From positions 1 through 35,448 of the IMG/VR virus record IMGVR_UViG_3300046490_000097: a DNA stretch of 35,448 nt; one strand, written 5' to 3'. This DNA comes from a virus (taxonomy: Duplodnaviria; Caudoviricetes). The notes under the pieces were generated by a model, which had not been told where the DNA came from, searched no databases, and saw nothing but the letters and a program-made list of their open reading frames with translations. This document shows, piece by piece, positions 777 through 35,448 of the stretch (position 1 is the first letter of the stretch; the number at the start of each line of letters is the position of its first letter). A program made the position numbers and the translations under genes.

Positions 777-1609
777 GCGATCCCGTGCGCATCCCCGGGC
801 TGCTCGACATCTCCATCGAGCCGCCGTTCGTCCGCAGCCAGCAGGTCGAGGACCTCGCCGCGGAGGTGATCGCCGCCTTCGACGAGTTCGAGCCCATCCA
901 GACGGCCCAGCGCGAGTGCGGGCTGTCCATCGAGTACGTCTGGGAGACCAAGCCCTTCGACCCGGCGCGCGACGAGTACCACGCGCACGTCGTCGCCAAA
1001 GTGACCAAGGCTAGCCCGCTGTGGCTCTCCCTGACGGACACCCACCTCGTGGTCCAGTTCCGCCGCTGGTTCTGGGAGCGCTTCGACGACTCGCAGCGCC
1101 GCGCCGTGCTGCACCACGAGCTCACGCACGTCGAGGTGGACGAGCCCGACGACCAGGGCCGCATCCCGGTGCGCCTGCGCAAGCACGACGTCGAGGACTT
1201 CACGCAGACGATGCGCCGGTTCGGTCCGGTCATCCCCGGGCGGAGGGCGTTCATCGCCGCGGCCACCGAGTGGGGACGCGAGCACCCGGGCGCGCTGGGC
1301 GAGGGCACCGCGGCCCACGAGGACGCCTTCGGCCACCAGGTGGCGGAGGAGGTCGCGCGCCGGATCAATGCCGGCGAGATGGACACCGCGGACGCCACCG
1401 CCACGGCGACCGTGTCGCACTCGCCGATGGTCGTGGACGCCGAGACCGGCGAGATCCTGTCCCGCGGCGACGACCCCGACGAGGTCCTGCACCGGATCGA
1501 GCGCCGCCCTGACCACCTGGCCGTGCTCGGCTCCGACGAGGGCCAGGAGGCGCTGCGCGGGGCCGCCCGCAAGGCTGCCGAGTCCCGCAGAAGGGCGGTC
1601 GAGCCGTGA
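773..1609 (+). CDS. Phage putative metallopeptidase (HExxH)
   Basis: GTG overlaps the upstream TGA. Motifs W..FDDSQRRAVLHHELTH and LRKHDVEDF...RFG are typical of the phage metallopeptidase-like family. Confidence 0.8.
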   Translation: MSDPVRIPGLLDISIEPPFVRSQQVEDLAAEVIAAFDEFEPIQTAQRECGLSIEYVWETKPFDPARDEYHAHVVAKVTKASPLWLSLTDTHLVVQFRRWFWERFDDSQRRAVLHHELTHVEVDEPDDQGRIPVRLRKHDVEDFTQTMRRFGPVIPGRRAFIAAATEWGREHPGALGEGTAAHEDAFGHQVAEEVARRINAGEMDTADATATATVSHSPMVVDAETGEILSRGDDPDEVLHRIERRPDHLAVLGSDEGQEALRGAARKAAESRRRAVEP

Positions 1610-1758
1610 CCCCGCTTGCAATCGCCGCGGTCGGCCTGTTCCTCGCCTTCACGGCACTCGCGGTCCTGCTGCTCGCGCCCACGGCCGACCAGCGGGACGC
1701 GCGCAGGCGCTCCGAGCCCCCGCGCTACTGGCGCGACCAGGCGCGGAGGATCCGGTGA
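1606..1758 (+). CDS. Small membrane protein (50 aa)
   Basis: Read by hand: VTPLAIAAVGLFLAFTALAVLLLAPTADQRDARRR...RRIR*. GTGA overlaps at both ends. Confidence 0.7.
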   Translation: MTPLAIAAVGLFLAFTALAVLLLAPTADQRDARRRSEPPRYWRDQARRIR

Positions 1759-1970
1759 GCCTGCTGTCGCTGGACGACGTGTGGCCGGGCTCCCCGCAGT
1801 CCGCCGTGTTCCGCGTCGGGGCCGCGACCGCCGACGAGGCCAACGCGCTCGCCAAGGCCGAGTCCCGCGAGCTCGGGTTCCAGACCAAGACGCGCGGCTA
1901 CACCGTCGAGGTCGAGCCCGGCGTCTGGCACGTCGAGCTGCGGGTCAGGACCGCGGGGGTTGCGCCGTGA
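1755..1970 (+). CDS. Hypothetical protein
   Basis: GGAGG RBS, GTGA overlaps at both ends, GC3-rich codons. Confidence 0.7.
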   Translation: MSLLSLDDVWPGSPQSAVFRVGAATADEANALAKAESRELGFQTKTRGYTVEVEPGVWHVELRVRTAGVAP

Positions 1971-2320
1971 GCCGCCTCATGTCCGTGTCCCTGACGGAGC
2001 AGGCCGTGGTGGATCGCCGCAAGACCGTGACCCGCCGGAAGGGCTGGCTGTTCCTCAAGCCGGGCGACCGGCTGACGCTCTGCCGCAAGGTCATGGGGCG
2101 CAAGCCGGGCGAGCCGCTGGTGAGGCTGGCCGAGGTCGAGGTGGTCAGCGTCCGCCGCGAGCTGCTCGATGCCATGCCAATCGGAGACGTCGAGCGCGAG
2201 GGCTTCACCGGCTGGTGGCGCACCGACTTCATCTGGTTCTTCTGCCAGCACATGAAGGTCACCCCGCAGACCGAGGTCACCCGGATCGAGTGGCGCTACC
2301 TCCCCGAGGTTGCGTCGTGA
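1967..2320 (+). CDS. ASCH/PUA-like domain protein
   Basis: Contains VVDRRKTVTRRKGW..LKPGD and VEVVSVRRE.L......DVEREGF, an ASCH-type signature. Confidence 0.8.
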   Translation: MSRLMSVSLTEQAVVDRRKTVTRRKGWLFLKPGDRLTLCRKVMGRKPGEPLVRLAEVEVVSVRRELLDAMPIGDVEREGFTGWWRTDFIWFFCQHMKVTPQTEVTRIEWRYLPEVAS

Positions 2321-2607
2321 TCGTCAGGGACGCGCGCCGGCGAGAGTCGGAGAACACGCCCTGGACGCCGTGGCTGTCCTCCCCGTCCTCGGGCGGCGCC
2401 TCGGTCCCGGTGCCGCTCGCGTCGGGCAACGTCGCGTCGCAGCGTCGCCACCGCCAGCGCGTCAGGATCGCCCGAGTGCCCGCACCGCGCCCCGTGGTGG
2501 CCTGCACGGTGTGCTCCGCGCCCTGTGAGCAGGGACGGGGCGAGCCGCGCCTCTACTGCGGAACCACGTGCCGCCAGCGGGCGTACCGGACCCGGCGGGA
2601 CGCCTGA
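2317..2607 (+). CDS. Zinc-finger protein
   Basis: C-terminal CTVC...YCGTTCRQRAYR. The start overlaps the upstream stop. Confidence 0.65.
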   Translation: MIVRDARRRESENTPWTPWLSSPSSGGASVPVPLASGNVASQRRHRQRVRIARVPAPRPVVACTVCSAPCEQGRGEPRLYCGTTCRQRAYRTRRDA

Positions 2608-2608
2608 G

Positions 2609-3181
2609 ATGCCCGCCCTCGTCATGCGCGGCCGGTACCTCATGCGCGAGTTCTGGTCGGACTCCGACCTGTTCCTCAAGCTCGACGCGCAGACCCGAGA
2701 GGTCTACATGGGCCTCTGGATGCTCGCCGACGACGACGGATGGCTGCCGAGGGACGTCCCGGGCATCGCCGCGGCGCTCTTCCGCTACATGGACCGCGAG
2801 CCTCGGGAGCGCCTGGTCACCGAATCGCTGTCGATGCTGGGACGGCTGGGCAAGGTTCAGAGCCTCAGGTGCTGCCTTTTCTGTCCGAGCGTCGCCAGAT
2901 ACCCCCGCGCGGGCAAGAAAAGCGCGTCGCACCACGACGACCACCGTCTGCATCAAACGCATTCAAACCAAACTGATGCAAAACCCCGAGCACATTCAAA
3001 GCCTTTTGAACCCATTCAAACGGATTTGAACCCCTCTCCCGTCGTTAACCCTTCCCTTCCTGACCCGTCGTCGCGCACGGGCGCGCCCGCGAGGGGCGGC
3101 GCGCCGAGCGCCATCACCGAGAGCGACTTCCGCAGCCTGGTGCCCATCGAGATGGCGCTCGGCAAGAAGGCCGCCTCGTGA
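2609..3181 (+). CDS. Phage replication initiator (replisome organizer-like)
   Basis: N-terminal REFWSD...LDAQTREVYMGLWMLADDDG is an initiator-type wHTH pattern. The gene contains an internal AT-rich repeat tract. Confidence 0.75.
   Translation: MPALVMRGRYLMREFWSDSDLFLKLDAQTREVYMGLWMLADDDGWLPRDVPGIAAALFRYMDREPRERLVTESLSMLGRLGKVQSLRCCLFCPSVARYPRAGKKSASHHDDHRLHQTHSNQTDAKPRAHSKPFEPIQTDLNPSPVVNPSLPDPSSRTGAPARGGAPSAITESDFRSLVPIEMALGKKAAS
2951..3032. promoter_or_regulatory. Putative replication origin (iterons) inside the initiator gene
   Basis: AT-rich island with CATTCAAA at 2960, 2993 and 3013. Two tandem 20-mers CATTCAAA-N4-TTTGAACC each contain the palindrome TTCAAA-N4-TTTGAA. Confidence 0.75.
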
Positions 3182-3378
3182 CCGCCGAGAGGGTGTGCGC
3201 CGTCTGCGGGCACGACCGCCGCGCCGACCTCGAGGCGTCCTGGGTCCGCTGGCTGTCCTCCGGCAGGGAGCGCCACGAGGCCGCCACCCGCTGCACCGAC
3301 CGCTCCGCCTGCCGGGCACGCGTCGAGGCCGCCGACGACGAGTGGTGGCCGATCGACGCCGAGGGGGCGAAGCCGTGA
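3178..3378 (+). CDS. Small Cys-rich hypothetical protein
   Basis: CAVC...RCTDRSAC motif, with overlapping start and stop codons. Confidence 0.7.
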   Translation: MTAERVCAVCGHDRRADLEASWVRWLSSGRERHEAATRCTDRSACRARVEAADDEWWPIDAEGAKP

Positions 3379-3677
3379 CGCTCCGCCGACGGTCGCCCAT
3401 CGCCCCATCCCGGGGGACCGTCATCGAGCCGCGCGTCAGGCAGGCCGTCCGCGAACGGGACCGCGGCTGCGTCGGGGCCCGTCTCGGATGGCCCGGTCCG
3501 CACGACACGGCGCTCGAGCTCGACCACGTCAGGGCCTCGGGCGGCATGGGGATGAAGAGCCGCGGCACGGAGGACAACCTCGTCTCGCTGTGCCTGGCGT
3601 GCCACTGGTGGAAGACCGAGCACGGCCGGGAGGCCCGGCCCCAGCTCGTCGCCTATCTCGAAGGGGTGAACGAATGA
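3375..3677 (+). CDS. HNH endonuclease
   Basis: VRERDRGC...LELDHVR...NLVSLCLACH. Confidence 0.85.
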   Translation: MTLRRRSPIAPSRGTVIEPRVRQAVRERDRGCVGARLGWPGPHDTALELDHVRASGGMGMKSRGTEDNLVSLCLACHWWKTEHGREARPQLVAYLEGVNE

Positions 3678-3994
3678 ACGCCTACCGTGTCCCCGAGATC
3701 GCCGCCGCGGTCTGCCCGCACCAGGTCCGCCTCGACCGCTGGTGCCCCGCCTGCTCCGACGCCGACCCGCTGCGGCCCGCCGATACGGACCGTGGCGAGT
3801 GCCCGGCCTGCCACCACCCCGACCACGACCCCGGCTCGTGCGAGTGGTGCCCGCGCTGCGAACTCCACACCGACGACGCCCGCGAGTGGCTGGATCGCAT
3901 CGAGCCGAGCGGCCTCCGCGTCCCAGCCGGCTGGGTCGCCGTCGCGCTGCTCGCGGGCCTCGCCCTGGGGCTGCTGATCGGACGGCTGGCGTGA
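3674..3994 (+). CDS. Cys/His-rich protein with C-terminal transmembrane helix
   Basis: ATGA overlap; CPACHHPDHDPGSCEWCPRC; hydrophobic C-terminus. Confidence 0.75.
   Translation: MNAYRVPEIAAAVCPHQVRLDRWCPACSDADPLRPADTDRGECPACHHPDHDPGSCEWCPRCELHTDDAREWLDRIEPSGLRVPAGWVAVALLAGLALGLLIGRLA
3800..3881 (+). repeat. 82-bp exact direct repeat, copy 1 (copy 2 at 5692..5773)
   Basis: TGCCCGGCCTGCCACCACC...ACCGACGACGCCC is identical in both copies by eye. Confidence 0.95.
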
Positions 3995-4617
3995 GCGGCC
4001 CCGATCCCCGACCCCTGACGCCGGAGGACGCGCTTCGGGAATGCATCGATCGGCTAGAGCGCTCGTCATCGCTGTTCAAGTCAGCGATGGGTCTTGCCCT
4101 CGACGCCGACGAGTTGATCCTCGACAAGGCGTTCGATGACGAGCGGTTCGCCATCGATGGCGTCGTGACGCGCGCTAACGCCACCCTCGACGCCGAGCGC
4201 GCCTCCCGCGAGGGCACCGACTGCACCGCATGCGGCTCGACCCTCGCCAACTGCCGCTCGCTCGCCCCAAGCGGGTGCTGCGGCCTCCACGACCACACTC
4301 CCGCCGAGCGCGCCCCTGTCGCGCCTCACCCCGACGAGAACCACGAGTTCCGCACGGCCTGCCTCCGCTGCGGCGAGCCGGGCAGCCTGTTCGTCTCCGT
4401 CCTCGCGCCGGGCGAGACGATGACGCTCAACCCGGCCCCGGCCGCCCTCGCCCCCGCCACCCCCGCCGACCGCGTCGAGGCCCCCCGTGACCAGCCCCGA
4501 TCCCCGACCCCTGACGCCCAACGAGGAGAGACTGCTCCGGTTCATGTGGCCGCAATGGCGGCAAAGCCGCAGCATCGGCGGGGCCCCCATCGACATGGGA
4601 CCCGTCGAAGTCGTTGA
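3991..4617 (+). CDS. Modular array gene 1 (SGPDPRPLT start; two Cys-rich modules)
   Basis: GTGA overlap and shared start motif. The frame reads past the EAPR junction at 4487 and overlaps gene 2 by about 130 nt. Confidence 0.7.
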   Translation: MSGPDPRPLTPEDALRECIDRLERSSSLFKSAMGLALDADELILDKAFDDERFAIDGVVTRANATLDAERASREGTDCTACGSTLANCRSLAPSGCCGLHDHTPAERAPVAPHPDENHEFRTACLRCGEPGSLFVSVLAPGETMTLNPAPAALAPATPADRVEAPRDQPRSPTPDAQRGETAPVHVAAMAAKPQHRRGPHRHGTRRSR

Positions 4618-4795
4618 CCGCCTTCTCGCCACCCTCGACGCCGAGCGCGCCCCCCGCGAGAGGGAGGGCGGGACGCTCTGCGAGTGCTCGCTAGTCGGCG
4701 TCCACGTCCACTCGTTCCGAGGCCCGCACCGCTTCCGCGAGTGGGACCCGGACGGCTCCGCAGCCATCAATGAACTCAGGGAGGCCAAGCCGTGA
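4487..4795 (+). CDS. Modular array gene 2 (TSPDPRPLT start)
   Basis: GAGG RBS plus GTG, shared start motif, TLDAERAPRE linker. Confidence 0.8.
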   Translation: MTSPDPRPLTPNEERLLRFMWPQWRQSRSIGGAPIDMGPVEVVDRLLATLDAERAPREREGGTLCECSLVGVHVHSFRGPHRFREWDPDGSAAINELREAKP

Positions 4796-5073
4796 CTAGC
4801 CCCGATCCCCGACAGGCTCTCGCGGCGCTCTTGGAGGCCGAGGGTTGGGAGCCCGAGTCGAACGTGTGCGCCGGGTGCGGCCACCCCGGAGGCGATCACG
4901 ACCTCAACAACTGGTGCCTGACCTGCCCTCGACCCGACCACGCCGGGCACGGCTTCACCGCGAAGATCGACGCCGGTTGGGACTACTTCTCGTCGTTCAG
5001 CCGCCGCGATCTGTGGGACCACGCCGTCGCCCGCCTCGTCGCCGTCGGCGTCACCGTGGAGGAACACCCGTGA
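4792..5073 (+). CDS. Modular array gene 3 (TSPDPR start; CxxC/His module)
   Basis: GGAGG RBS, GTGA overlap, shared start motif. Confidence 0.8.
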   Translation: MTSPDPRQALAALLEAEGWEPESNVCAGCGHPGGDHDLNNWCLTCPRPDHAGHGFTAKIDAGWDYFSSFSRRDLWDHAVARLVAVGVTVEEHP

Positions 5074-5483
5074 CCAGCCCCGATCCCCGACCCCTGACCG
5101 CGGAGGAGGTCATGCGTGCCGCGTGGGAGCGCGACATCCACACGCCGCACTCGATCCTCCGTCGCATCGAGCAGATGGGCTACACCATCGTCCCCGCCGA
5201 GCGCGCCCCCCGCGAGGGGGACGCCGACGAAGTCCTTGCCCGCCTCCGAAGCACCACCGACGCGGAGGTCAGGGATCGCACGGCGCTGCTCGACGCTGAG
5301 ATCGTCCGCTTCCGGAAGGCGCTGCGGGCCTACTTCAAGGCGGTTGACGACATCCGTGACGCTGGCGAGGCCCGAGGGGGCGATCCCGGCCTCATCTCGG
5401 CCATGTACCGGAACGCCGGGAAGCGGCAGCGAGAAGCCGAGGCGATCCTCCGCGCCGCCATCAAGGAGGCCCCCCGTGGCTAG
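5070..5483 (+). CDS. Modular array gene 4 (TSPDPRPLT start)
   Basis: GGAGG RBS, GTGA overlap, PAERAPREG linker, ends KEAPRG*. Confidence 0.8.
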   Translation: MTSPDPRPLTAEEVMRAAWERDIHTPHSILRRIEQMGYTIVPAERAPREGDADEVLARLRSTTDAEVRDRTALLDAEIVRFRKALRAYFKAVDDIRDAGEARGGDPGLISAMYRNAGKRQREAEAILRAAIKEAPRG

Positions 5484-6246
5484 CCCCGATCCCCGACCCC
5501 TGACCATGACCGACGACGAGGCGCACGACTACCTGCTCACCCTCGCCAACCTAGCGCCCATCCCCGATGCCGGTCGCCTCGGAGCCGCCATCCGAGCCAT
5601 CCGTGCGAAGGCCATCACCGACTGCAAGGAGTGGGGCCTCGACGCCGAGCGCGCCGCCCCCGCTGGCCTAGGACCGCTCGTGGACGACGGCTGCCCGGCC
5701 TGCCACCACCCCGACCACGACCCCGGCTCGTGCGAGTGGTGCCCGCGCTGCGAACTCCACACCGACGACGCCCTGTCGTGGGTCGAGCGGATCGACCCCG
5801 CCCTGCTGGTCGAGCGCGCCGCCCGCGCTGGAGACGGGCTGCGGGAGGCGGCACTTCACGCGGCGTACATCGCGGAGTCCTGTGGCGACCTGTACCACCA
5901 CCCCGGATGCAAGGAGGCGGGCCAGAGACTCCGCGCCGCGATCCCGAAGGAGGCCCCCCGTGACTACGTCGTCAGGGTAGAGGTCGAGCTGCACGAGGCG
6001 GAGATGGCCGCTGCGGGCCGCGAGGACGACCCGAGCCAGTGGGGCTTCCGGGAGATCGCACGGGCGGTCGAGGAGGGCGTCGCCAGCGCGGAGGCGGTGG
6101 GGCGGCCGTCGCCGATGAGCGAGGGCGAGGCCGCCGTGCTCGAGCGGATGGCGACGGCGCTCCGCGCCTGCGGCGCGTACTTCCCGCGGGACGACCCGCA
6201 CGCCTACGCCGGCCGTCTGCTGGCCGAGATGAGAGGAGCGACCTGA
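5476..6246 (+). CDS. Modular array gene 5 (ASPDPRPLT start; four fused modules)
   Basis: AAGGAGG RBS. Contains LDAERAA and VERAAR linkers, the 82-bp duplicated module and an internal KEAPRD junction. Confidence 0.75.
   Translation: MASPDPRPLTMTDDEAHDYLLTLANLAPIPDAGRLGAAIRAIRAKAITDCKEWGLDAERAAPAGLGPLVDDGCPACHHPDHDPGSCEWCPRCELHTDDALSWVERIDPALLVERAARAGDGLREAALHAAYIAESCGDLYHHPGCKEAGQRLRAAIPKEAPRDYVVRVEVELHEAEMAAAGREDDPSQWGFREIARAVEEGVASAEAVGRPSPMSEGEAAVLERMATALRACGAYFPRDDPHAYAGRLLAEMRGAT
5692..5773 (+). repeat. 82-bp exact direct repeat, copy 2
   Basis: Identical to 3800..3881 and encodes the same peptide. Confidence 0.95.
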
Positions 6247-6247
6247 A

Positions 6248-6475
6248 ATGCCCTTCGTGATGATGGACACGACCGACCCGGTGATCGCCAACACGGCGAT
6301 CGACGACCCGTTCGGCCCGTGCTTCAGCCGAGCGCTGGCCGCGAAGGCCGACCGGCTCGTCGTGCGCGGCTCGTCCGTCGGGGACCCCGGCGGCGACTAC
6401 GTCGAGTTCGAGCTGCTGGTGCGCACGACCGCCGGCGAGAGCACGATCGCCAAGCGGCGCGTGCTGGGGTACTGA
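6248..6475 (+). CDS. Hypothetical protein
   Basis: GAGGAG RBS and ATG just after the upstream stop. Confidence 0.7.
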   Translation: MPFVMMDTTDPVIANTAIDDPFGPCFSRALAAKADRLVVRGSSVGDPGGDYVEFELLVRTTAGESTIAKRRVLGY

Positions 6476-6476
6476 C

Positions 6477-6923
6477 ATGGCACACGAGGTTCCCGACCCG
6501 CCCACGCAGGACGGGTGCACCGGCTGCGGCGCAGACCTGCGTCACGGCCTCTCCGTCGGCGATCGCGTCCTCGTCGTCGCGCCGCACACGGCCCGGATGG
6601 CCGCGACCGTCATCGGGCTCTCGCTCGACACGGCCGACCTGATGGTCGACGGTCGCGACTACCCGCTCGGCCACGTCCACTGCAAGTGGCTCGTGCCCGC
6701 CGACGAGCCCGCCGAGACCGTCTGCCGGTTCAGCGACGAGGACGACGGCGCGTGGTGCGGCCATCCGCTCGCCGAGCACCGCGTACAGCACGCGACCGCG
6801 GTGGCCGAGAGCTTCCCGAGCGACGTGCTCGGCCGCTGCCACGAGCCCGGCGCAGACCACGCGTGGTACCACCGCCACGGCTCGCGGTGGGTGCGACCGG
6901 CCGAGGACAGGGGGTTCGCGTGA
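6477..6923 (+). CDS. Hypothetical Cys/His-containing protein
   Basis: Fills the gap between neighbours; GC3-rich codon usage. Confidence 0.65.
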   Translation: MAHEVPDPPTQDGCTGCGADLRHGLSVGDRVLVVAPHTARMAATVIGLSLDTADLMVDGRDYPLGHVHCKWLVPADEPAETVCRFSDEDDGAWCGHPLAEHRVQHATAVAESFPSDVLGRCHEPGADHAWYHRHGSRWVRPAEDRGFA

Positions 6924-7183
6924 CCCTCACCGCCCGCCAGTCCGAGGCCCTGCGCCTCCTCGCATCGGGGCTCCGGGACAAGGAGATCGCCGCCTCGATG
7001 GGCGTGACGCTGAACACCGTCAAGGCCCTGCTGATGGACGCCCGCGCCCGCCTCGGGATGCTGGGCGCCACCCGCGTCGAGCTGGCCTCCGCGTACTCGG
7101 GCGGTGCGGGCAACCCCGGCGCCGGGGCTCCAGCCGTTTCGTCCGGAAGACCGGGCACCCGCGCCGCCCGGGCCGAGCCGTAG
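6920..7183 (+). CDS. LuxR-family HTH regulator (stand-alone)
   Basis: LTARQSEALRLLASGLRDKEIAASMGVTLNTVKALL. Confidence 0.85.
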   Translation: MTLTARQSEALRLLASGLRDKEIAASMGVTLNTVKALLMDARARLGMLGATRVELASAYSGGAGNPGAGAPAVSSGRPGTRAARAEP

Positions 7184-7184
7184 C

Positions 7185-7391
7185 GTGGTCGTCCTGCACC
7201 CCCTGACCGCCCGCGAGGCCGAGGTGGCCGAGCTCGTCCGCATGGGCCTGTCCAACGGCCAGATCGCCGCCGAGCTCGTCATCGAGGAGCGGACCGTCCG
7301 CGCCCACGTCAGCGCCGTCCTGCACAAGTGGGCGCTCGACGGCCGGGTGGACATCGCCCGCGTGGCGACCGAGGAGCGGCTGCACCGGTGA
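7185..7391 (+). CDS. LuxR-family HTH regulator (stand-alone)
   Basis: LTAREAEVAELVRMGLSNGQIAAELVIEERTVRAHVSAVLHK. Confidence 0.88.
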   Translation: MVVLHPLTAREAEVAELVRMGLSNGQIAAELVIEERTVRAHVSAVLHKWALDGRVDIARVATEERLHR

Positions 7392-7567
7392 GCGCCTTCC
7401 TGACCCTCGACGAGGCGGCCGCCGAGCTGCGCGTGTCGCGCCGGTCGGTGGAGCGCCTGGTGCGCTCGGGGCGGATCCGCGTCGTGCGCCCGTCGCCGGG
7501 CAGGGTCGCGGTAGAGCGCCGCGAGATGGACGCCTACATCGCGTGGATGCGCCGCTCGGCGGCGTAG
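7388..7567 (+). CDS. xis: Excisionase (Xis-like HTH)
   Basis: FLTLDEAAAELRVSRRSVERLVRSGRI, located upstream of the integrase. Confidence 0.75.
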   Translation: MSAFLTLDEAAAELRVSRRSVERLVRSGRIRVVRPSPGRVAVERREMDAYIAWMRRSAA

Positions 7568-7602
7568 ATGAGTTCCATTCAGGGAACCGACACAGAGAAG
7601 GG

Positions 7603-8493
7603 ATGGTCGAGAACGTGAAGATCGAGGAAACCGAGCTGACTCCGGAGCTGGCCGCGAAACTGCTGGCGAACCCGCACCCGGCGCAGCGAAGGCCGTCGAC
7701 GCTGGTCGTCGCCACATATGCCCGGGCGATCAGGGAGGGAAGGTGGCGCCTCATCGCCGATCCGATCCTCGTTGACCCCTCGGGCCTGATGTTCAACGGC
7801 GCGCACCGGTGCGCGGCTGTCATCTCCGCCGCGCAGTCGATCCCCGTGATGATCTGCTGGGACGCGGACGCTTCGACGTTCGACCTGATCGACATCGGCC
7901 GCAAGCGGAGCGCCTACCAGTTCGTGACTGCCGCCGACGCTACGCTACGGTCATCCGCGGCGCGCGTAACCCTCTGGTATGAGCGCCGGTTCGACCGGCC
8001 GCTCCAGCCCCGACACATCGCGTTCGACATGCACGAGATCATGACCGAGGTCGAGGCGCAGTCCAACGCCTTCGACGCCATGGGCAGGTGCGCCAAGACG
8101 ACCCACGAGTACACGGGACTCACGCCGTCCGTCGTCCTGGGTGCCTACTCGATCGCCTTCGGCATGGGGTGCTTGGCCGAGGTCGACGCATTCGTTGACG
8201 GCATCGTCAACCCGAATGACCTCCCGTCGGGGAGCCCGGCCCGCGCGCTGTCGGACCGCTTCCGCAAGCAGGACCATCGCGGGCGGCGGCGTGAGCTGGT
8301 GCAGGACTGGTCGATTCTCGTTCGGGCCCTGAACCTGTACGTCGAGGGGCGCAGCGTCAATCGGCTCGTCCTGAGCGATTTCTGGCCGCGTGTCGCGGAG
8401 TCGGAGGCCGACTTCAACCGGCGTCGTAACGCAGCCTCACACGCTCGAAAGACTCCCATCTATGGTGCTAGATCGGAGTCTCGTTCGGCGTAA
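7603..8493 (+). CDS. ParB/Srx-like N-terminal domain protein
   Basis: LTPELAAKLL..N...QR...V..YARAIREGRW....PI.VD..G.MFNGAHR..AV matches the phage ParB-like pattern, which usually reads DGQHR. GC is lower than in the flanks. Confidence 0.7.
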   Translation: MVENVKIEETELTPELAAKLLANPHPAQRRPSTLVVATYARAIREGRWRLIADPILVDPSGLMFNGAHRCAAVISAAQSIPVMICWDADASTFDLIDIGRKRSAYQFVTAADATLRSSAARVTLWYERRFDRPLQPRHIAFDMHEIMTEVEAQSNAFDAMGRCAKTTHEYTGLTPSVVLGAYSIAFGMGCLAEVDAFVDGIVNPNDLPSGSPARALSDRFRKQDHRGRRRELVQDWSILVRALNLYVEGRSVNRLVLSDFWPRVAESEADFNRRRNAASHARKTPIYGARSESRSA

Positions 8494-8503
8494 CATCCGC
8501 GTC

Positions 8504-9547
8504 ATGGTCGAGCGTCGGGCGCGCCGTGGGGACGGCAGCGTCTACTGGTCCAAGTCCATGCGGCGGTGGATCGCCAAGCACCCCAAGGCCGCCTCCCGCC
8601 GACGGTTCAGGACGGAGCCCGAGGCCGTCGACCAGCTCCGCGAGTGGCGCCGCCTGTACGGGCGCTCCGAGCGCAGGTTCGACGGCACGCTCGGCGAGTG
8701 GCTGGCCGAGTGGCTGCCCGCGCACTCCCGGAGCGTCCGCCCGTCGACGGCCACCAGCTACGCGGGGCACGTCAGGCTGCACATCTCCCCACTGCTGGGC
8801 GGCATCCCGCTCGCAGAGCTTCGCCCGTCCGACATCCGGCGCCTCGTGGCGGACTGCGCGGCGAACGGCCTGAGCCCCGGCACCACGCACCTCGTCATCC
8901 GCACGCTGTCCGTGGCGCTGAACGCCGCCGAGTCGGACGGCGTACTCGACAGGAGCCCGACGAGGGGCGTCAGGCTCCCGCGCCTCGAGCGACCCGGACC
9001 CGCCGCCATGACGCGGGACGACGCCGACGTCGTCCTCGCGGCCGTCGTCGGGACATGGCTGTGGCTGCCCGTCCGGGCGCTGCTCGGCTCGGGCCTCCGC
9101 GCCGGCGAGCTGTGCGGGCTCGACCAGGGCGACCTCGTGCTCCCCGCGCTGTACGTCCGGGTCCGCCTGACCAAGACGCAGCCGCGGGCCGTCCCCGTCA
9201 CGCGCGACGCGGCCGAGGCGCTCACCGAGCTCCTGCGCGCCGCCCCCCGTGTCGGGCCGGGTGAGCCCGTCCTGTTCGGGCCCCGGACGGGCGAGCGGCT
9301 GCGGGTGGGGTCGCTGTCGCACGCCTTCGGCAAGGCGCTCCAGGACGCCGGCCTGCCGCCGATGCGCGTCCACGACCTGCGGCACGGGGTCGCCACGATG
9401 ATGCTCACCAAGGGCAGTCCCATGCGCGCCATCGCGGACCAGCTCGGGCACCGCAACCCGAGCATGACGGCCCGCGTCTACGCCCACGTCGTGCCCGAGG
9501 TGCAGCGGCGCTCGCTCGACGCGATCGACGAGTCCCAGACCGGATAG
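8504..9547 (+). CDS. int: Tyrosine integrase
   Basis: RRGDGSVY N-terminal arm; catalytic residues in GLRAGE, TK, HDLRH, LGH and RVYAH. TAACAT (8491-8496) lies 7 nt before the ATG, suggesting a leaderless promoter. Confidence 0.95.
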   Translation: MVERRARRGDGSVYWSKSMRRWIAKHPKAASRRRFRTEPEAVDQLREWRRLYGRSERRFDGTLGEWLAEWLPAHSRSVRPSTATSYAGHVRLHISPLLGGIPLAELRPSDIRRLVADCAANGLSPGTTHLVIRTLSVALNAAESDGVLDRSPTRGVRLPRLERPGPAAMTRDDADVVLAAVVGTWLWLPVRALLGSGLRAGELCGLDQGDLVLPALYVRVRLTKTQPRAVPVTRDAAEALTELLRAAPRVGPGEPVLFGPRTGERLRVGSLSHAFGKALQDAGLPPMRVHDLRHGVATMMLTKGSPMRAIADQLGHRNPSMTARVYAHVVPEVQRRSLDAIDESQTG

Positions 9548-23845: not shown

Positions 23846-24328
23846 ATGGACAGCCGAAGCCCTGAGGACGTCCTGGCGGGCGTCCTCAGGATCTCGGTCG
23901 GGGGCGTCGAGAAGATCGTCCCGACGCTGCCGATCCGCGCGACCCGCGAGTGGCAGGCATCTCTGGCGGAGGGGCCGGGCGCCTTCACGCCCGCCGACGC
24001 CGACGACTGGACGCCCGTGGAGGCCTCGGAGTTCTCCGGCCTCGCGCTGGAGGCGGTCCTCGGCATCGTCGTGTCCTACGACCGCACCGGCGCGCTCGGC
24101 GGCCGGGAGTGGCTCGAGGAGCACGCCGACCCGGCGCAGATCTACGCGGCCGCGGGCCAGATGGCGGACGTCGCGTTCCCTTTCGCGGACGACACGAGGG
24201 TGCTTCTGGCCGCCCTGGTGGCCCGGTCGGTCGTCGGGTCGGTCGCCCCGAGCTCTACGAGTGGGCGCTCTCGAAGTGGGGCCTCGACCCGCGGGCGCTC
24301 GAAGACCGCCTCGACGCGAGCCAGCTGA
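23846..24328 (+). CDS. Tail assembly chaperone (G-like)
   Basis: Lies between the tube and tape measure genes and contains a slippery heptamer. Confidence 0.8.
   Translation: MDSRSPEDVLAGVLRISVGGVEKIVPTLPIRATREWQASLAEGPGAFTPADADDWTPVEASEFSGLALEAVLGIVVSYDRTGALGGREWLEEHADPAQIYAAAGQMADVAFPFADDTRVLLAALVARSVVGSVAPSSTSGRSRSGASTRGRSKTASTRAS
24178..24184 (+). promoter_or_regulatory. Programmed -1 frameshift site C CCT TTC
   Basis: X XXY YYZ in the chaperone frame; the -1 frame stays open to 24582. Confidence 0.75.
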
Positions 24329-33009: not shown

Positions 33010-33240
33010 ATGCAGATCGTCATTGACAGGGGCGCCGCGGAGGCGCTCGCGGAGGCGGCCGAGGTCCGCTGCGGGCTGCTGGCGGCGCACCTCGAGCGGA
33101 TCCCCGAGGCCGACCGCGCGCTGGTCATGGGCGAGATCGTCCGCGTCCAGCGGGGAGCCGAGGCCGTCCGGGCGGCGCTGGGGCCGCGGTCCGGGCTGCT
33201 CTGGCGCGAGATGGTCGCCGAGTGGCAGGCGGGCGCCTGA
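33010..33240 (+). CDS. Hypothetical protein
   Basis: Purine-rich RBS plus ATG; stop overlaps the next ATG. Confidence 0.7.
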   Translation: MQIVIDRGAAEALAEAAEVRCGLLAAHLERIPEADRALVMGEIVRVQRGAEAVRAALGPRSGLLWREMVAEWQAGA

Positions 33241-34256
33241 TGGCCGCCACGGCCGAGTACCTGTCCGTCGTCCAGCGGACGCCCGAGTGGATCGAGGCGC
33301 GACAGCACGGCATCGGCGCCAGCGAGGCCGCCGCGGCCTGCGGGCTATCGCCGTGGGAGTCGCCCTACTCGCTGTGGGCCCGCAAGTGCGGCCTCGTGCC
33401 GCCCATCGACACGACGCTCGCGATGGAGATCGGCACGCTGACCGAGCCGCTCAACGCGGCCCGCTACGCCGATGCGGTCGGGATGCCGGTCCGCCGGGTC
33501 AACCGCCTCATGCGCTCCAAGTCCCGCCCGTTCGCGCTCGCGAGCCTCGACCGCCGCCGCGCCGACGGCCGTCTCGTTGAGCTCAAGTGGAGCGAGCGCG
33601 CCGACGGCTACGGCGACCCCGGGACCGACGAGGTCCCCGAGGCCGTGGCCTGCCAGGTCACGCACCAGATGTTCGTGGCCGGCGCGGACTGCGCCGACGT
33701 GTCGCTGCTCACCGGGGCGAGGGACGCCATCCGCGTCTACACCGTCCGCTGGGACGCCGAGTTCGCGGACGCGATGCTCGAGCGCGAGGCCCGCCTCTGG
33801 GGCCATGTCGAGGACCGCACCGAGCCTGAGCTCGACGGCAGCGCCGCCACGCTCCGGGCGCTGTCCGAGCGCTACCCCGCCGCCGAGCTCGAGGAGGTCG
33901 AGTCGGCCGACCCGGACGTGGCCGAGGCGCTGCGGGCCGTCCTCGACGTGCGGGAGGCCATCGCTCGCCACCAGTCCACCGAGAAGACGCTGCGGGTGGT
34001 CCTAGAGGCCGCGCAGGGGGCGGCGGGGCTGCTGACGGTCCCTGGCGTCGGGTCCGTGAGGTGGGCCGGCTGGGTCAAGGGGTCCACCAAGTGGAAGGAC
34101 GCCGCCGCGGCGCTGTGGGGCGAGATCGCCGCCGCCGAGTCGATGGAGATGGCGGCCAAGTCGCTGCCGGAGTTCGCAGAGCAGTTCCGCGGAGAGGGTC
34201 GCCGGGGCGACTGGGAGCCGCGCCGCGTGAAGGTCGAGGAGGGATCGAATGTCTAG
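33240..34256 (+). CDS. YqaJ/lambda-exonuclease-like recombination nuclease
   Basis: EWIEARQHGIGASEAAA..GLSPWES...ASLDR...LVELK. Confidence 0.92.
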   Translation: MAATAEYLSVVQRTPEWIEARQHGIGASEAAAACGLSPWESPYSLWARKCGLVPPIDTTLAMEIGTLTEPLNAARYADAVGMPVRRVNRLMRSKSRPFALASLDRRRADGRLVELKWSERADGYGDPGTDEVPEAVACQVTHQMFVAGADCADVSLLTGARDAIRVYTVRWDAEFADAMLEREARLWGHVEDRTEPELDGSAATLRALSERYPAAELEEVESADPDVAEALRAVLDVREAIARHQSTEKTLRVVLEAAQGAAGLLTVPGVGSVRWAGWVKGSTKWKDAAAALWGEIAAAESMEMAAKSLPEFAEQFRGEGRRGDWEPRRVKVEEGSNV

Positions 34257-35289
34257 CACCGCGCTCGCCGTCGTCGAGCAGAGCCAGGTCGCCCGCGAGC
34301 TCGGGGGGCTCACCAAGCAGCTCCTCTCGCTGCTCCCGGGCCCCGAGGCGGTCCGCCGGTTCCAGCGGGTCACCGTCCAGGCGCTCGTCAAGAACCCGGA
34401 CCTGCTCGACTGCACCCCGGACTCGGTCGTGCAGTCCGTCATGGAGGCCGCCGCGATGGGCCTCGAGCCGACCGGCTCGACGGGCGGGGCGTACCTCGTC
34501 CCGCGCAACGTCAACGTCGGCACCAAGGACCGGCCCAAGTACGAGAAGCAAGCCCAGCTCATCCCCGACTACCGCGGCGTCTCCAAGATGGTGACCCGGA
34601 CCCGGATGGACGGCTCGCCCTCGGACGTGGCGAAGGTCGAGTGGCGCGTCGTCAAGGAGGGCGACGAGTTCGCCTGGACCGAGGGCACCGCCCCGACCCT
34701 GACGCACGTACCGGCGCTGGCCCCGGACCGCTCCGCGAAGCCGACCACCCACGTCTACGCGGTCGGCACCCTGCGCTCGGGAGAGACGCTGTTCGACGTC
34801 ATGGACCACGCGGCCGTCGAGCGCATCCGCAAGCGCGGCAAGCCCAAGGCGTTCAGCCCGTGGGACAGCGACTGGGACGAGATGGCGAAGGCCAGGGTGG
34901 TCAAGCGCCTGTGCAAGATGCTACCGGTCGAGCCCGTCGTGCTCGCCATCATCAACCGCGAGGACGAGCAGGCCGGCGAGTCCGCCGATGCGCCCGACGT
35001 GCCGGTGGAGGTCACGGGCAGCCGGACGCGCCAGCTCGCGGCGAAGCTCCGCCAGGAGCCCGTCCAGGACGCCCCCAGCGCCCAGCCCGAGCCCGAGGCG
35101 GCGCCCGTCGCCCCGGAGCCCGTCGAGGAGGCCGTGGCGGTCGCCCTGTGCCCCGCCAGGAGCGACGAGAAGCTCGGCGCCGTCGAGGACTGCAGCCTGC
35201 CCGCCGGGCACGAGTCGCGCCCCGGCCCGAAGCGCCACCAGTCGGCCGCCGGGACGGTCTGGCCGGTCGCGAAGGCGGCAGCGTCGTGA
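34249..35289 (+). CDS. recT: RecT-family ssDNA annealing protein
   Basis: NPDLLDCTPDSV...AAAMGLEP...AYLVP...AQLIPDYRG...SPWDSDWDEMAK..V.KRL.K.LP. Confidence 0.92.
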   Translation: MSSTALAVVEQSQVARELGGLTKQLLSLLPGPEAVRRFQRVTVQALVKNPDLLDCTPDSVVQSVMEAAAMGLEPTGSTGGAYLVPRNVNVGTKDRPKYEKQAQLIPDYRGVSKMVTRTRMDGSPSDVAKVEWRVVKEGDEFAWTEGTAPTLTHVPALAPDRSAKPTTHVYAVGTLRSGETLFDVMDHAAVERIRKRGKPKAFSPWDSDWDEMAKARVVKRLCKMLPVEPVVLAIINREDEQAGESADAPDVPVEVTGSRTRQLAAKLRQEPVQDAPSAQPEPEAAPVAPEPVEEAVAVALCPARSDEKLGAVEDCSLPAGHESRPGPKRHQSAAGTVWPVAKAAAS

Positions 35290-35448
35290 GCACCATCGAG
35301 GTCCGCTCGCAGCAGGAGCTGGACGCCGCGCTCGACAGCGCGGGCGCCTACGACGTAATCGCCATCGTCGGGGGCTCGTGGCTCGAGTTGTCGAGGCGCC
35401 CCAAGAACGACACCGCGTCGGTCACGGCCTCCGACTCCGCGTCGGTCA
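35286..35448 (+). CDS. N-terminal part of the octapeptide-repeat protein (continues at window start)
   Basis: GTGA overlap with recT; MSTIEVRSQQELDAALD...NDTASVTASDSASV is open to the end of the window. Confidence 0.85.
   Translation, partial: MSTIEVRSQQELDAALDSAGAYDVIAIVGGSWLELSRRPKNDTASVTASDSASV

Follow-up and report, generated by a model that had tools for sequence, protein, structure and literature searches.

Small gene modules between repeated coding DNA joints in a soil phage: a candidate system of exchange by short homology

In T4-type phages, the short repeats of the PeSL cassettes lie in a variable region of small genes of unknown function and are sites of homologous exchange, insertion and deletion; according to the cited passages of Arbiol et al. 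2010 (PMC2839356) and Comeau et al. 2014 (PMC4122927), they are non-coding promoter/terminator units between genes which move whole genes, and mini-circles have been shown. Here we describe an array of five consecutive small genes in IMG/VR virus record IMGVR_UViG_3300046490_000097, which was analysed as a whole (35,448 bases, 73% G+C; hereafter the window). The genes are named by their start positions (3991, 4487, 4792, 5070 and 5476), and consist of unrelated modules separated by short repeated DNA words, the joints. Two kinds of joint are present: the gene-boundary joint, in which J3 (gene end and ribosome-binding site, RBS) runs straight into J1 (start peptide), and the internal joint J2. 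We consider it probable that the small unrelated modules between these two in-frame kinds are swapped by homologous crossover in the joints, with the YqaJ/RecT pair of the phage as the likely catalyst.

The array resembles the PeSL system, as far as the cited passages go, in that repeats act as exchange sites among small unknown genes, gene content differs at the repeats between relatives and no dedicated recombinase is shown. It differs in that the joints are coding, with no sigma-70 promoter or terminator found, and that J2 lies inside genes, so that sub-gene modules would be swapped in frame; mini-circles have been shown for PeSLs, whereas none is listed here in eight contig sets. J3+J1 is also similar to the boundaries of the Botstein-Campbell linker model and of lambdoid phages, being a short conserved sequence which flanks non-homologous genes and keeps RBS, start and translational coupling (as described in passages of PMC2839356 and PMC3233612). 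In contrast to the lambdoid boundaries, the same boundary is repeated here at consecutive genes of one genome, is paired with an internal in-frame joint and delimits modules of 25-90 amino acids. Conserved boundary sequences of lambdoid phages are reportedly treated also by Clark et al. (2001) in their paper on HK620. With the relaxed recombination of Rad52-like proteins the locus shares a RecT/exonuclease pair, and a few pairs of its longer joints come up to the 23-27 bp of Red-beta; in the part cited, the work of De Paepe et al. 2014 (PMC3945230) concerns long diverged homologies in E. coli phages, whereas the joints here measure 10-40 nucleotides (nt) and the role of RecT is a proposed one. 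Domain mosaicism of phage proteins (Smug et al. 2023, PMC10684548; fragments of at least 50 amino acids required, annotated core functions in focus) and the lambdoid exo-xis/Ea22 region (PMC8614690) offer further likenesses, namely sub-gene fragments common to otherwise unrelated proteins and small early accessory genes; the passages cited from the two describe no repeated DNA joint, whereas the joint is repeated here. In the open-access literature, supplements aside, our searches yielded no account of joints that are both coding and intragenic in accessory arrays, nor of arrays of this kind in Limnocylindria phages.

By this comparison the array can be regarded as Botstein's linker model in kind, except that its joints are coding and some lie inside genes. 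As a natural example of that model below the gene level it is unusually clear, with modules of 25-90 residues, bounded by defined DNA words, moving in frame between phages. The array also provides a testable substrate for the old question of whether short homology directs the boundaries of mosaics or selection only sifts them. A further suggestion is that many small phage ORFans (orphan open reading frames) lack a full-length family because they are assembled from modules below the size limit of common mosaicism screens.

Joint words and modules of the array

The features of the array are presented in Table 1; P numbers denote proteins, L numbers other DNA loci and X numbers metagenome runs. 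The gene-boundary element consists of the gene end, an RBS 6-8 nt before the start, GTG and the peptide SPDPRPLT. J1 (CCCCGATCCCCGAC) is located at 3999, 4495, 4800, 5078 and 5484, with no other copy on either strand of the window, and J3 at 4477, 5466 and 5950. J2 (G(C/T)CGAGCGCGCC) has the six copies listed in Table 1, all of them in frame, and one copy on the reverse strand near 24100. Based on a 4th-order Markov model, the copies expected by chance are 0.002 for J1, about 0.19 for J2 and 0.002 for J3. All copies are direct repeats. Exact matches between copies extend over 15-32 nt for J1, 10-25 for J2 and 13-16 for J3, and up to about 50 nt with mismatches; four of the 28 copy pairs have an exact match of at least 24 nt, and one further pair reaches 23 nt. 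There are also longer forms, with LRAAI ahead of J3 and DGLREAA behind the sixth J2.

An earlier model-made reading of the letters alone (the sequence-only reading) had proposed a modular array of five genes built on three joint words. The coordinates of all three words hold, their copies are far above the chance expectation, and J2 is in frame as claimed (6/6). The three repeats exist, but J3+J1 is one contiguous element, so that the joints are of two kinds; J1 does stand at all five starts, but gene 4792 lacks J2 and gene 3991 lacks the J3 ahead of it. The longer joint forms and a second copy of module B (107 nt, 92% identical, at 3800-3906) were absent from that reading. Upstream of gene 3991, no GGAG, GAGG or AGGA is found within 20 bases.

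In the six-C form of J3, the stop of the upstream gene is a TAG two codons on, inside the first codons of the next gene (third codon position). The TAG is present at 5481; CAG is found instead at 4492 and TAC at 5965, and for this reason gene 3991 extends as far as 4617, and gene 5476 as far as 6246. Because the related protein P0062 stops directly after EAPRD, read-through is probably the derived state in gene 3991. Segment D (5966-6246), joined to gene 5476 by read-through at J3, has no homologue among 56 matches; the GTG at 5960 opens six codons only, and the segment may be a gene that was captured and joined where a boundary had decayed.

Two rare codons are fixed in all five J1 copies: GAT (2% of Asp codons) and CGA (3% of Arg codons; usage from nine reference genes). 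This argues that J1 is conserved as DNA and not as a peptide alone. The chance of all copies having the same codons is 3e-6 for J1 and 8e-4 for the J2 core.

Table 1. Genes, modules and joints of the array, and recombination genes of the window
Feature	Position	Strand	Remarks
Gene 1 (3991): J1-M1-J2-M2-J2-M3-J3	3991..4617	+	Read-through, codon at 4492 is CAG; relative P0062 ends at EAPRD
J1 copy 1, GTG start and SGPDPRPLT	3991..4019	+	No J3 upstream
Module M1	4021..4176	+	85% identical block in P0064, flanks unrelated
J2 copy 1, long form	4178..4215 (core 4192-4203)	+	
Module M2, Cys-rich	4216..4299	+	P0062 shares last 11-13 amino acids only; break off joint
J2 copy 2, core	4303..4314	+	
Module M3 (HPDENHEFRTACLRCG)	4318..4476	+	Behind other modules in P0062, P0063, L076, P0031, P0035, P0058
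Gene-boundary joint J3+J1, RBS, start 4487	4477..4515	+	
Gene 2 (4487): J1-M4-J2-M5-J3 variant	4487..4795	+	P0065 98% identical over amino acids 1-58
J2 copy 3, long form	4626..4660 (core 4640-4651)	+	
Variant gene-boundary joint: EAKP stop, start 4792, short J1	4781..4813	+	
Gene 3 (4792): short J1, module M6 (Cys/His), without J2	4792..5073	+	
Variant gene-boundary joint: EEHP stop, start 5070, J1	5059..5098	+	
Gene 4 (5070): J1-M7-J2-M8-J3	5070..5483	+	C-terminal 47 amino acids of M8 recur in P0002-P0004, flanks unrelated
J2 copy 4	5190..5225 (core 5196-5207)	+	
Extended gene-boundary joint: LRAAI-KEAPRG stop, start 5476, J1	5447..5504	+	
Gene 5 (5476): J1-A-J2-B-J2-C-J3	5476..6246	+	Read-through (TAC at 5965) into segment D
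Module A	5506..5634	+	12 homologues, various downstream modules; helical in poor model
J2 copy 5	5637..5667 (core 5644-5655)	+	
Module B, CPACHH...C..C...ELH	5671..5805	+	39 homologues scored; ATPAPL joints flank in another lineage
J2 copy 6 and DGLREAA extension	5809..5852	+	Extension also in P0063
Module C	5854..5929	+	C-terminal module in P0057 and P0059
Extended J3 copy 3	5930..5962	+	No J1 after it
Second module B copy	3800..3906	+	92% over 107 nt, in upstream gene ending at 3994, no joints
Tyrosine integrase	8390..9547	+	Rival catalyst, not supported
YqaJ/RecE-like exonuclease	33222..34256	+	E 7.8e-28; candidate catalyst
RecT annealase	34249..35289	+	E 1.3e-27; candidate catalyst

Motifs with four runs of at least four C occur only twice in the 35-kb window, and both are J3+J1 joints (4481 and 5470); they are of the G-quadruplex type on the template strand, and proline codons may explain them. 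Together with the tyrosine integrase 2.1 kb downstream of the array, they could point to a dedicated site-directed system, in which the integrase or another factor recognises the joints in an integron- or shufflon-like manner, or in which a template-strand G-quadruplex of J3+J1 starts recombination. We regard such a system as quite improbable: none of the eight joints tested has dyad symmetry or a stable fold, or folds better than its shuffles (z -0.88 to +2.27), every copy is a direct repeat, the words vary by lineage, looser four-run C motifs are missing in three of six other loci (L083, L087 and L072), and breakpoints have no single fixed position but scatter raggedly across 10-30 nt, on and next to the joints. 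The integrase, which has an excisionase-like neighbour, fits ordinary prophage integration. The array contains no terminator-like site, and no promoter-like site was found in 2500-7700 (a scan for the sigma-70 consensus only; host promoters may differ).

The twelve inter-joint segments (25-90 amino acids, many Cys/His-rich) are mutually unrelated, as had been claimed, except for a weak Cys/His motif that links M3, M6 and B (blastp E 1.5e-4 to 0.17 over 15-20 amino acids). That motif is what would be left to see if the genes were decayed tandem paralogs, with the joints as the last conserved residues of one family. Such an origin is largely refuted and hardly tenable, as the other modules lack mutual similarity, yet several are 70-98% identical in other phages with other neighbours; full-length homology between the array genes is absent.

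The two copies of module B in the window (3800-3906 and 5692-5798) have an identical core, which may reflect a recent duplication or gene conversion. J1 can also be read as three imperfect 7-mers (CCCCGAT CCCCGAC CCCTGAC; 3999-4019 and the other J1 copies). In metagenomes the J1 22-mer has three matches, none in a phage relative and all in heptamer-type repeats of bacterial DNA; these are intergenic repeats of unrelated bacteria (L006 243-275, L007 about 4887-5022, L008 1267-1326), with an inverted copy nearby in L007 and L008. The repeat of L006 sits behind what we take to be a four-helix-bundle gene. J1 may have its origin in such a host heptamer repeat, or the likeness may be due to chance. 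In IMG/VR, the J1 21-mer has no match, and all six matches to the 22-nt J2 pattern are chance ones in unrelated genes.

Relatives and other lineages

The joints of the window are also carried by other proteins. P0065 and gene 4487 agree at 57 of 58 residues, but from the end of J2 onwards P0065 is unrelated. P0063 contains J1, a long J2 and DGLREAA around two foreign modules, followed by M3 of the window, and departs where J3 begins. In P0062, a variant of J1 is combined with two copies of J2, with M3 and with the J3 end; its break lies inside M2, 13 amino acids before J2. P0062 and P0065 each come from an ENA contig of 1,407 bases, probably one and the same.

The array DNA is present in peat and permafrost metagenomes (8/10 runs examined). 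Each of the 11 joins listed for runs X6 and X8 connects one joint with another and has other letters between them: J1 to J2 (4), J1 to J3 (4), J2 to J3 (1) and J2 to J2 (2). The join endpoints lie within 10 nt of a joint core in 21 of 26 cases, an area equal to 20% of the region; these points depend on one another, and contigs necessarily break at repeats. What they do show is a phage population with the joints in common and other DNA placed between them. Three variants connect J2 copy 4 with M3, with 4, 2 and 1 letters between (X6/X8, X1/X6 and X2, respectively); by coordinate arithmetic all three fusions are in frame, with M7 or its joint followed by M3 in place of M8, and the frame is kept in all listed fusions with known junction letters (four variants). 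The loose ends of X3 at 4478, 4486 and 4517 correspond to the J3 start, the start codon and the J1 end, and the one at 4478 continues as in P0063. The loose ends listed are 24 of 54 and 18 of 69. Many module bins without cover in X6-X9 were not counted as evidence. The window itself may stem from run X1, and X1-X4 (peat, 2025) may be one campaign. Joint-to-joint deletions or circles, a check proposed in the sequence-only reading, did not turn up: none is listed in the contig sets of eight runs, and contigs drop rare forms.

A search with gene 5476 yielded 56 proteins in three groups, which match modules A, B and C. Many of the homologues bear a repeated linker of their own at the place of J2 in the window, and the joint words of the lineages are AERAPREG, ATPAPLD, PDPAPLD and HERSAGTAPLD. 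Pattern scans located one word in nine stretches (three with several exact copies) and another in seven. Clustered joint copies are found in L076 (11), L088 (7), L083 (5), L085 (4) and L087 (4 internal and 5 boundary), and a start word or gene-boundary word is repeated also in L085, L087 and L088; L084 and L086 have single copies, and the single matches in L075, L080, L082 and L090 are probably unrelated. Within the ATPAPL lineage, module B is 45/45 identical from joint to joint in L072, P0006, P0007 and P0008, with four different left and four different right neighbours. A second module of this lineage is 98% identical in L076 and P0006 at differing positions, and P0006 and L077 have a common first module (92%) and diverge at the joint. 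At the DNA level, L072 and the window align over 198 nt (77%), a stretch that starts at J2 copy 5 and ends shortly after J2 copy 6. Several modules have 70-98% identical counterparts in other phages beside other neighbours. Neither a fixed module order in relatives nor full-length paralogy of the genes, each named beforehand as grounds for dropping the proposal, was found; orders and modules differ.

Start, internal and end words thus form a general grammar of this group, each lineage having words of its own. The grammar is not found everywhere: the 22 terminase relatives and one RecT relative share no array DNA, their best match to the array region being 41 nt. Ten of these 23 were inspected, and among the matches listed none has a clustered joint family like that of the window, except G010 and a repeat in G011. 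In L059 (G010, a terminase relative), SLNVRKR forms the end of the integrase and of the two genes after it, with a common RBS and start (35499, 35717 and 36013), a gene-end joint of its own. In L062 (G011), a 15-nt repeat including the start codon has three copies on the minus strand (22564, 22806 and 23779) and is possibly another start joint. Further recurrent words outside the lineage of the window occur in P0002, P0054 and P0058 and in P0008, P0027, P0028, P0041 and P0045 (TLDAAWAEAE-type, LDVERLARA-type); such words suggest a much larger module pool. No match to module A was confirmed in IMG/VR, and module B has two weak, irrelevant matches in GTDB genomes.

Breakpoints and the proposed exchange

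For the breakpoint test, the joints were masked and the best block was taken for each of seven module groups, which gave nine interior ends. Five of these lie at most 6 amino acids from a J2 core (expected share 0.22, p 0.027); the others miss J2 by 13, 20, 38 and 52 amino acids, the last being 6 amino acids from the J1 end. Since five ends are near J2 and the remaining ones 13-52 amino acids off, the joints appear in these alignments to be preferred, not exclusive, breakpoints. The claim that the joints are crossover points is supported by the cleanest breaks (P0065, P0063 and the in-frame M7-J2-M3 of X1, X2, X6 and X8), but several breaks fall off the joints.

A number of results weigh against crossover in the joints or against the catalyst proposed for it. 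With a limit of 10 amino acids, the count of block ends near J2 is again 5/9 (expected share 0.33, p 0.13). Off-joint breaks are found in gene 5070 at amino acid 84 (38 after J2, 3/3 homologues), in gene 3991 at amino acid 92 (13 from J2) and at the start of the module C block (amino acid 135). The module B copy at 3800-3906 lies in a joint-less gene, and most distant homologues of module B begin at the CPACH motif and have other flanks. The two joins listed for X1 (3719 to 3936 and 5059 to 6359) are not joint to joint. Loose ends at 4638, 4652, 4658, 5114, 5185 and 5639 may belong to other organisms; one-sided loose ends at J2 may stem from them because J2 alone is a common word, and the settings of the run comparison (likeness 90, sides 21-39 nt) are open to such matches. 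Many J2 pairs match over 10-15 nt only, below the published pairing minimum. RecT is found in none of five fragmentary carrier records (11-76% complete), as are ERF and Rad52 (0/5). One of the five contains an AAA_24 protein, which is presumably Sak4-like.

The off-joint breaks and the joint-free module B would also be expected if breakpoints were selected and not targeted: illegitimate recombination would be random, only fusions at Pro/Ala linkers or gene ends would survive, and the joints would be hitch-hiking linker remnants. This is a standard alternative for phage mosaicism, as put in passages of PMC3233612. For the present array we hold it to be unlikely, as selection on a linker peptide would not fix rare synonymous codons in five of five copies and gives no account of each lineage's own word being repeated 4-11 times around unrelated modules.

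Homologous crossover in the joints, the preferred explanation, would take place when phages co-infect a host, likely one of the Chloroflexota (Ca. Limnocylindrales), or when a prophage is rescued in it. YqaJ would resect the DNA and RecT would anneal 15-50 nt of a common joint. A crossover in J3+J1 would exchange whole genes along with stop, RBS, start and translational coupling, one in J2 would exchange half-genes with no frameshift, and unequal crossover would add or remove modules. Recurrent crossover and conversion would keep the joint copies of one lineage similar, while the words of different lineages drift apart; the Pro/Ala-rich joints would act as flexible linkers, so that most products may be tolerated.

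The YqaJ/RecT pair named as a plausible catalyst in the sequence-only reading is encoded by the phage (E values in Table 1), and the RecT gene lies on the same strand as the array, about 4.1 kb upstream if the record is closed into a circle. That RecT catalyses joint exchange is something we only infer. The minimal pairing segment, in the part of PMC3945230 cited, is 23-27 bp for Red-beta and 31-34 bp for RecA; as the joints match over 10-32 nt, the phage annealase is favoured for the longer joints and the short J2 pairs are marginal. A stronger proposal would be that temperate phages of Limnocylindria-type soil bacteria keep an evolved combinatorial protein library, in which a selected grammar of start, internal and end joints, with words specific to the lineage and tuned to the recombinase (possibly G-quadruplex-primed at the gene boundary), builds new counter-defence proteins from dozens of small zinc-binding and helical modules, much faster than background recombination would; we see this as possible but doubtful.

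Protein function and phage setting

The five array proteins match no Pfam family over the cut-off and no PHROG at E 0.001, and the best score in an ESM Atlas search (0.83) is at chance level. A model of module B (predicted local distance difference test, pLDDT, 78) has no Foldseek match at E 0.001 in PDB or BFVD; a single-sequence model of 163 amino acids had a pLDDT of 51 and was not used. The Cys/His residues of module B are invariant in 36 of 36 aligned sequences, and the module is likely to be zinc-binding. From the position of these small genes between replication and integration functions, the array proteins are likely to be host-interaction or counter-defence accessories.

Judged from its sequence, the window is a temperate tailed phage, which contains terminase, capsid, tail, tyrosine integrase, excisionase-like and replication proteins besides the YqaJ/RecT pair. 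A 24-nt tandem repeat (8-amino-acid unit, SASV-type) is found at 35408-35448 and 1-296, inside one open reading frame directly downstream of recT; because both ends lie in this one repeat and the frame is continuous across them, the record probably represents a complete circle that was opened there. The CheckV completeness figure of 47% is at odds with this. Among INPHARED phages there is no DNA match to the array, and the terminase reaches only about 27%, to actinophages. P0014, a homologue of an array module, comes from a metagenome-assembled genome of Ca. Limnocylindrales and is the only one of 20 looked-up proteins with a taxon; on this ground, a Chloroflexota host (Ca. Limnocylindrales) is likely. 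No RNA dataset is listed among those that contain array sequence.

Two tandem LuxR-like helix-turn-helix (HTH) genes are found at 6920-7567 (label based on PHROG sigma-factor/HTH matches). These and the excisionase-like gene are followed by a 316-amino-acid gene of PHROG 5931 and then by the integrase, all on one strand. In L072, a phage fragment with module B, ParB-like, pyridoxal-phosphate-enzyme-like and radical-SAM-like (S-adenosylmethionine) genes at 1469-3906, labelled by eye, precede the terminase and possibly form a DNA-modification cluster.

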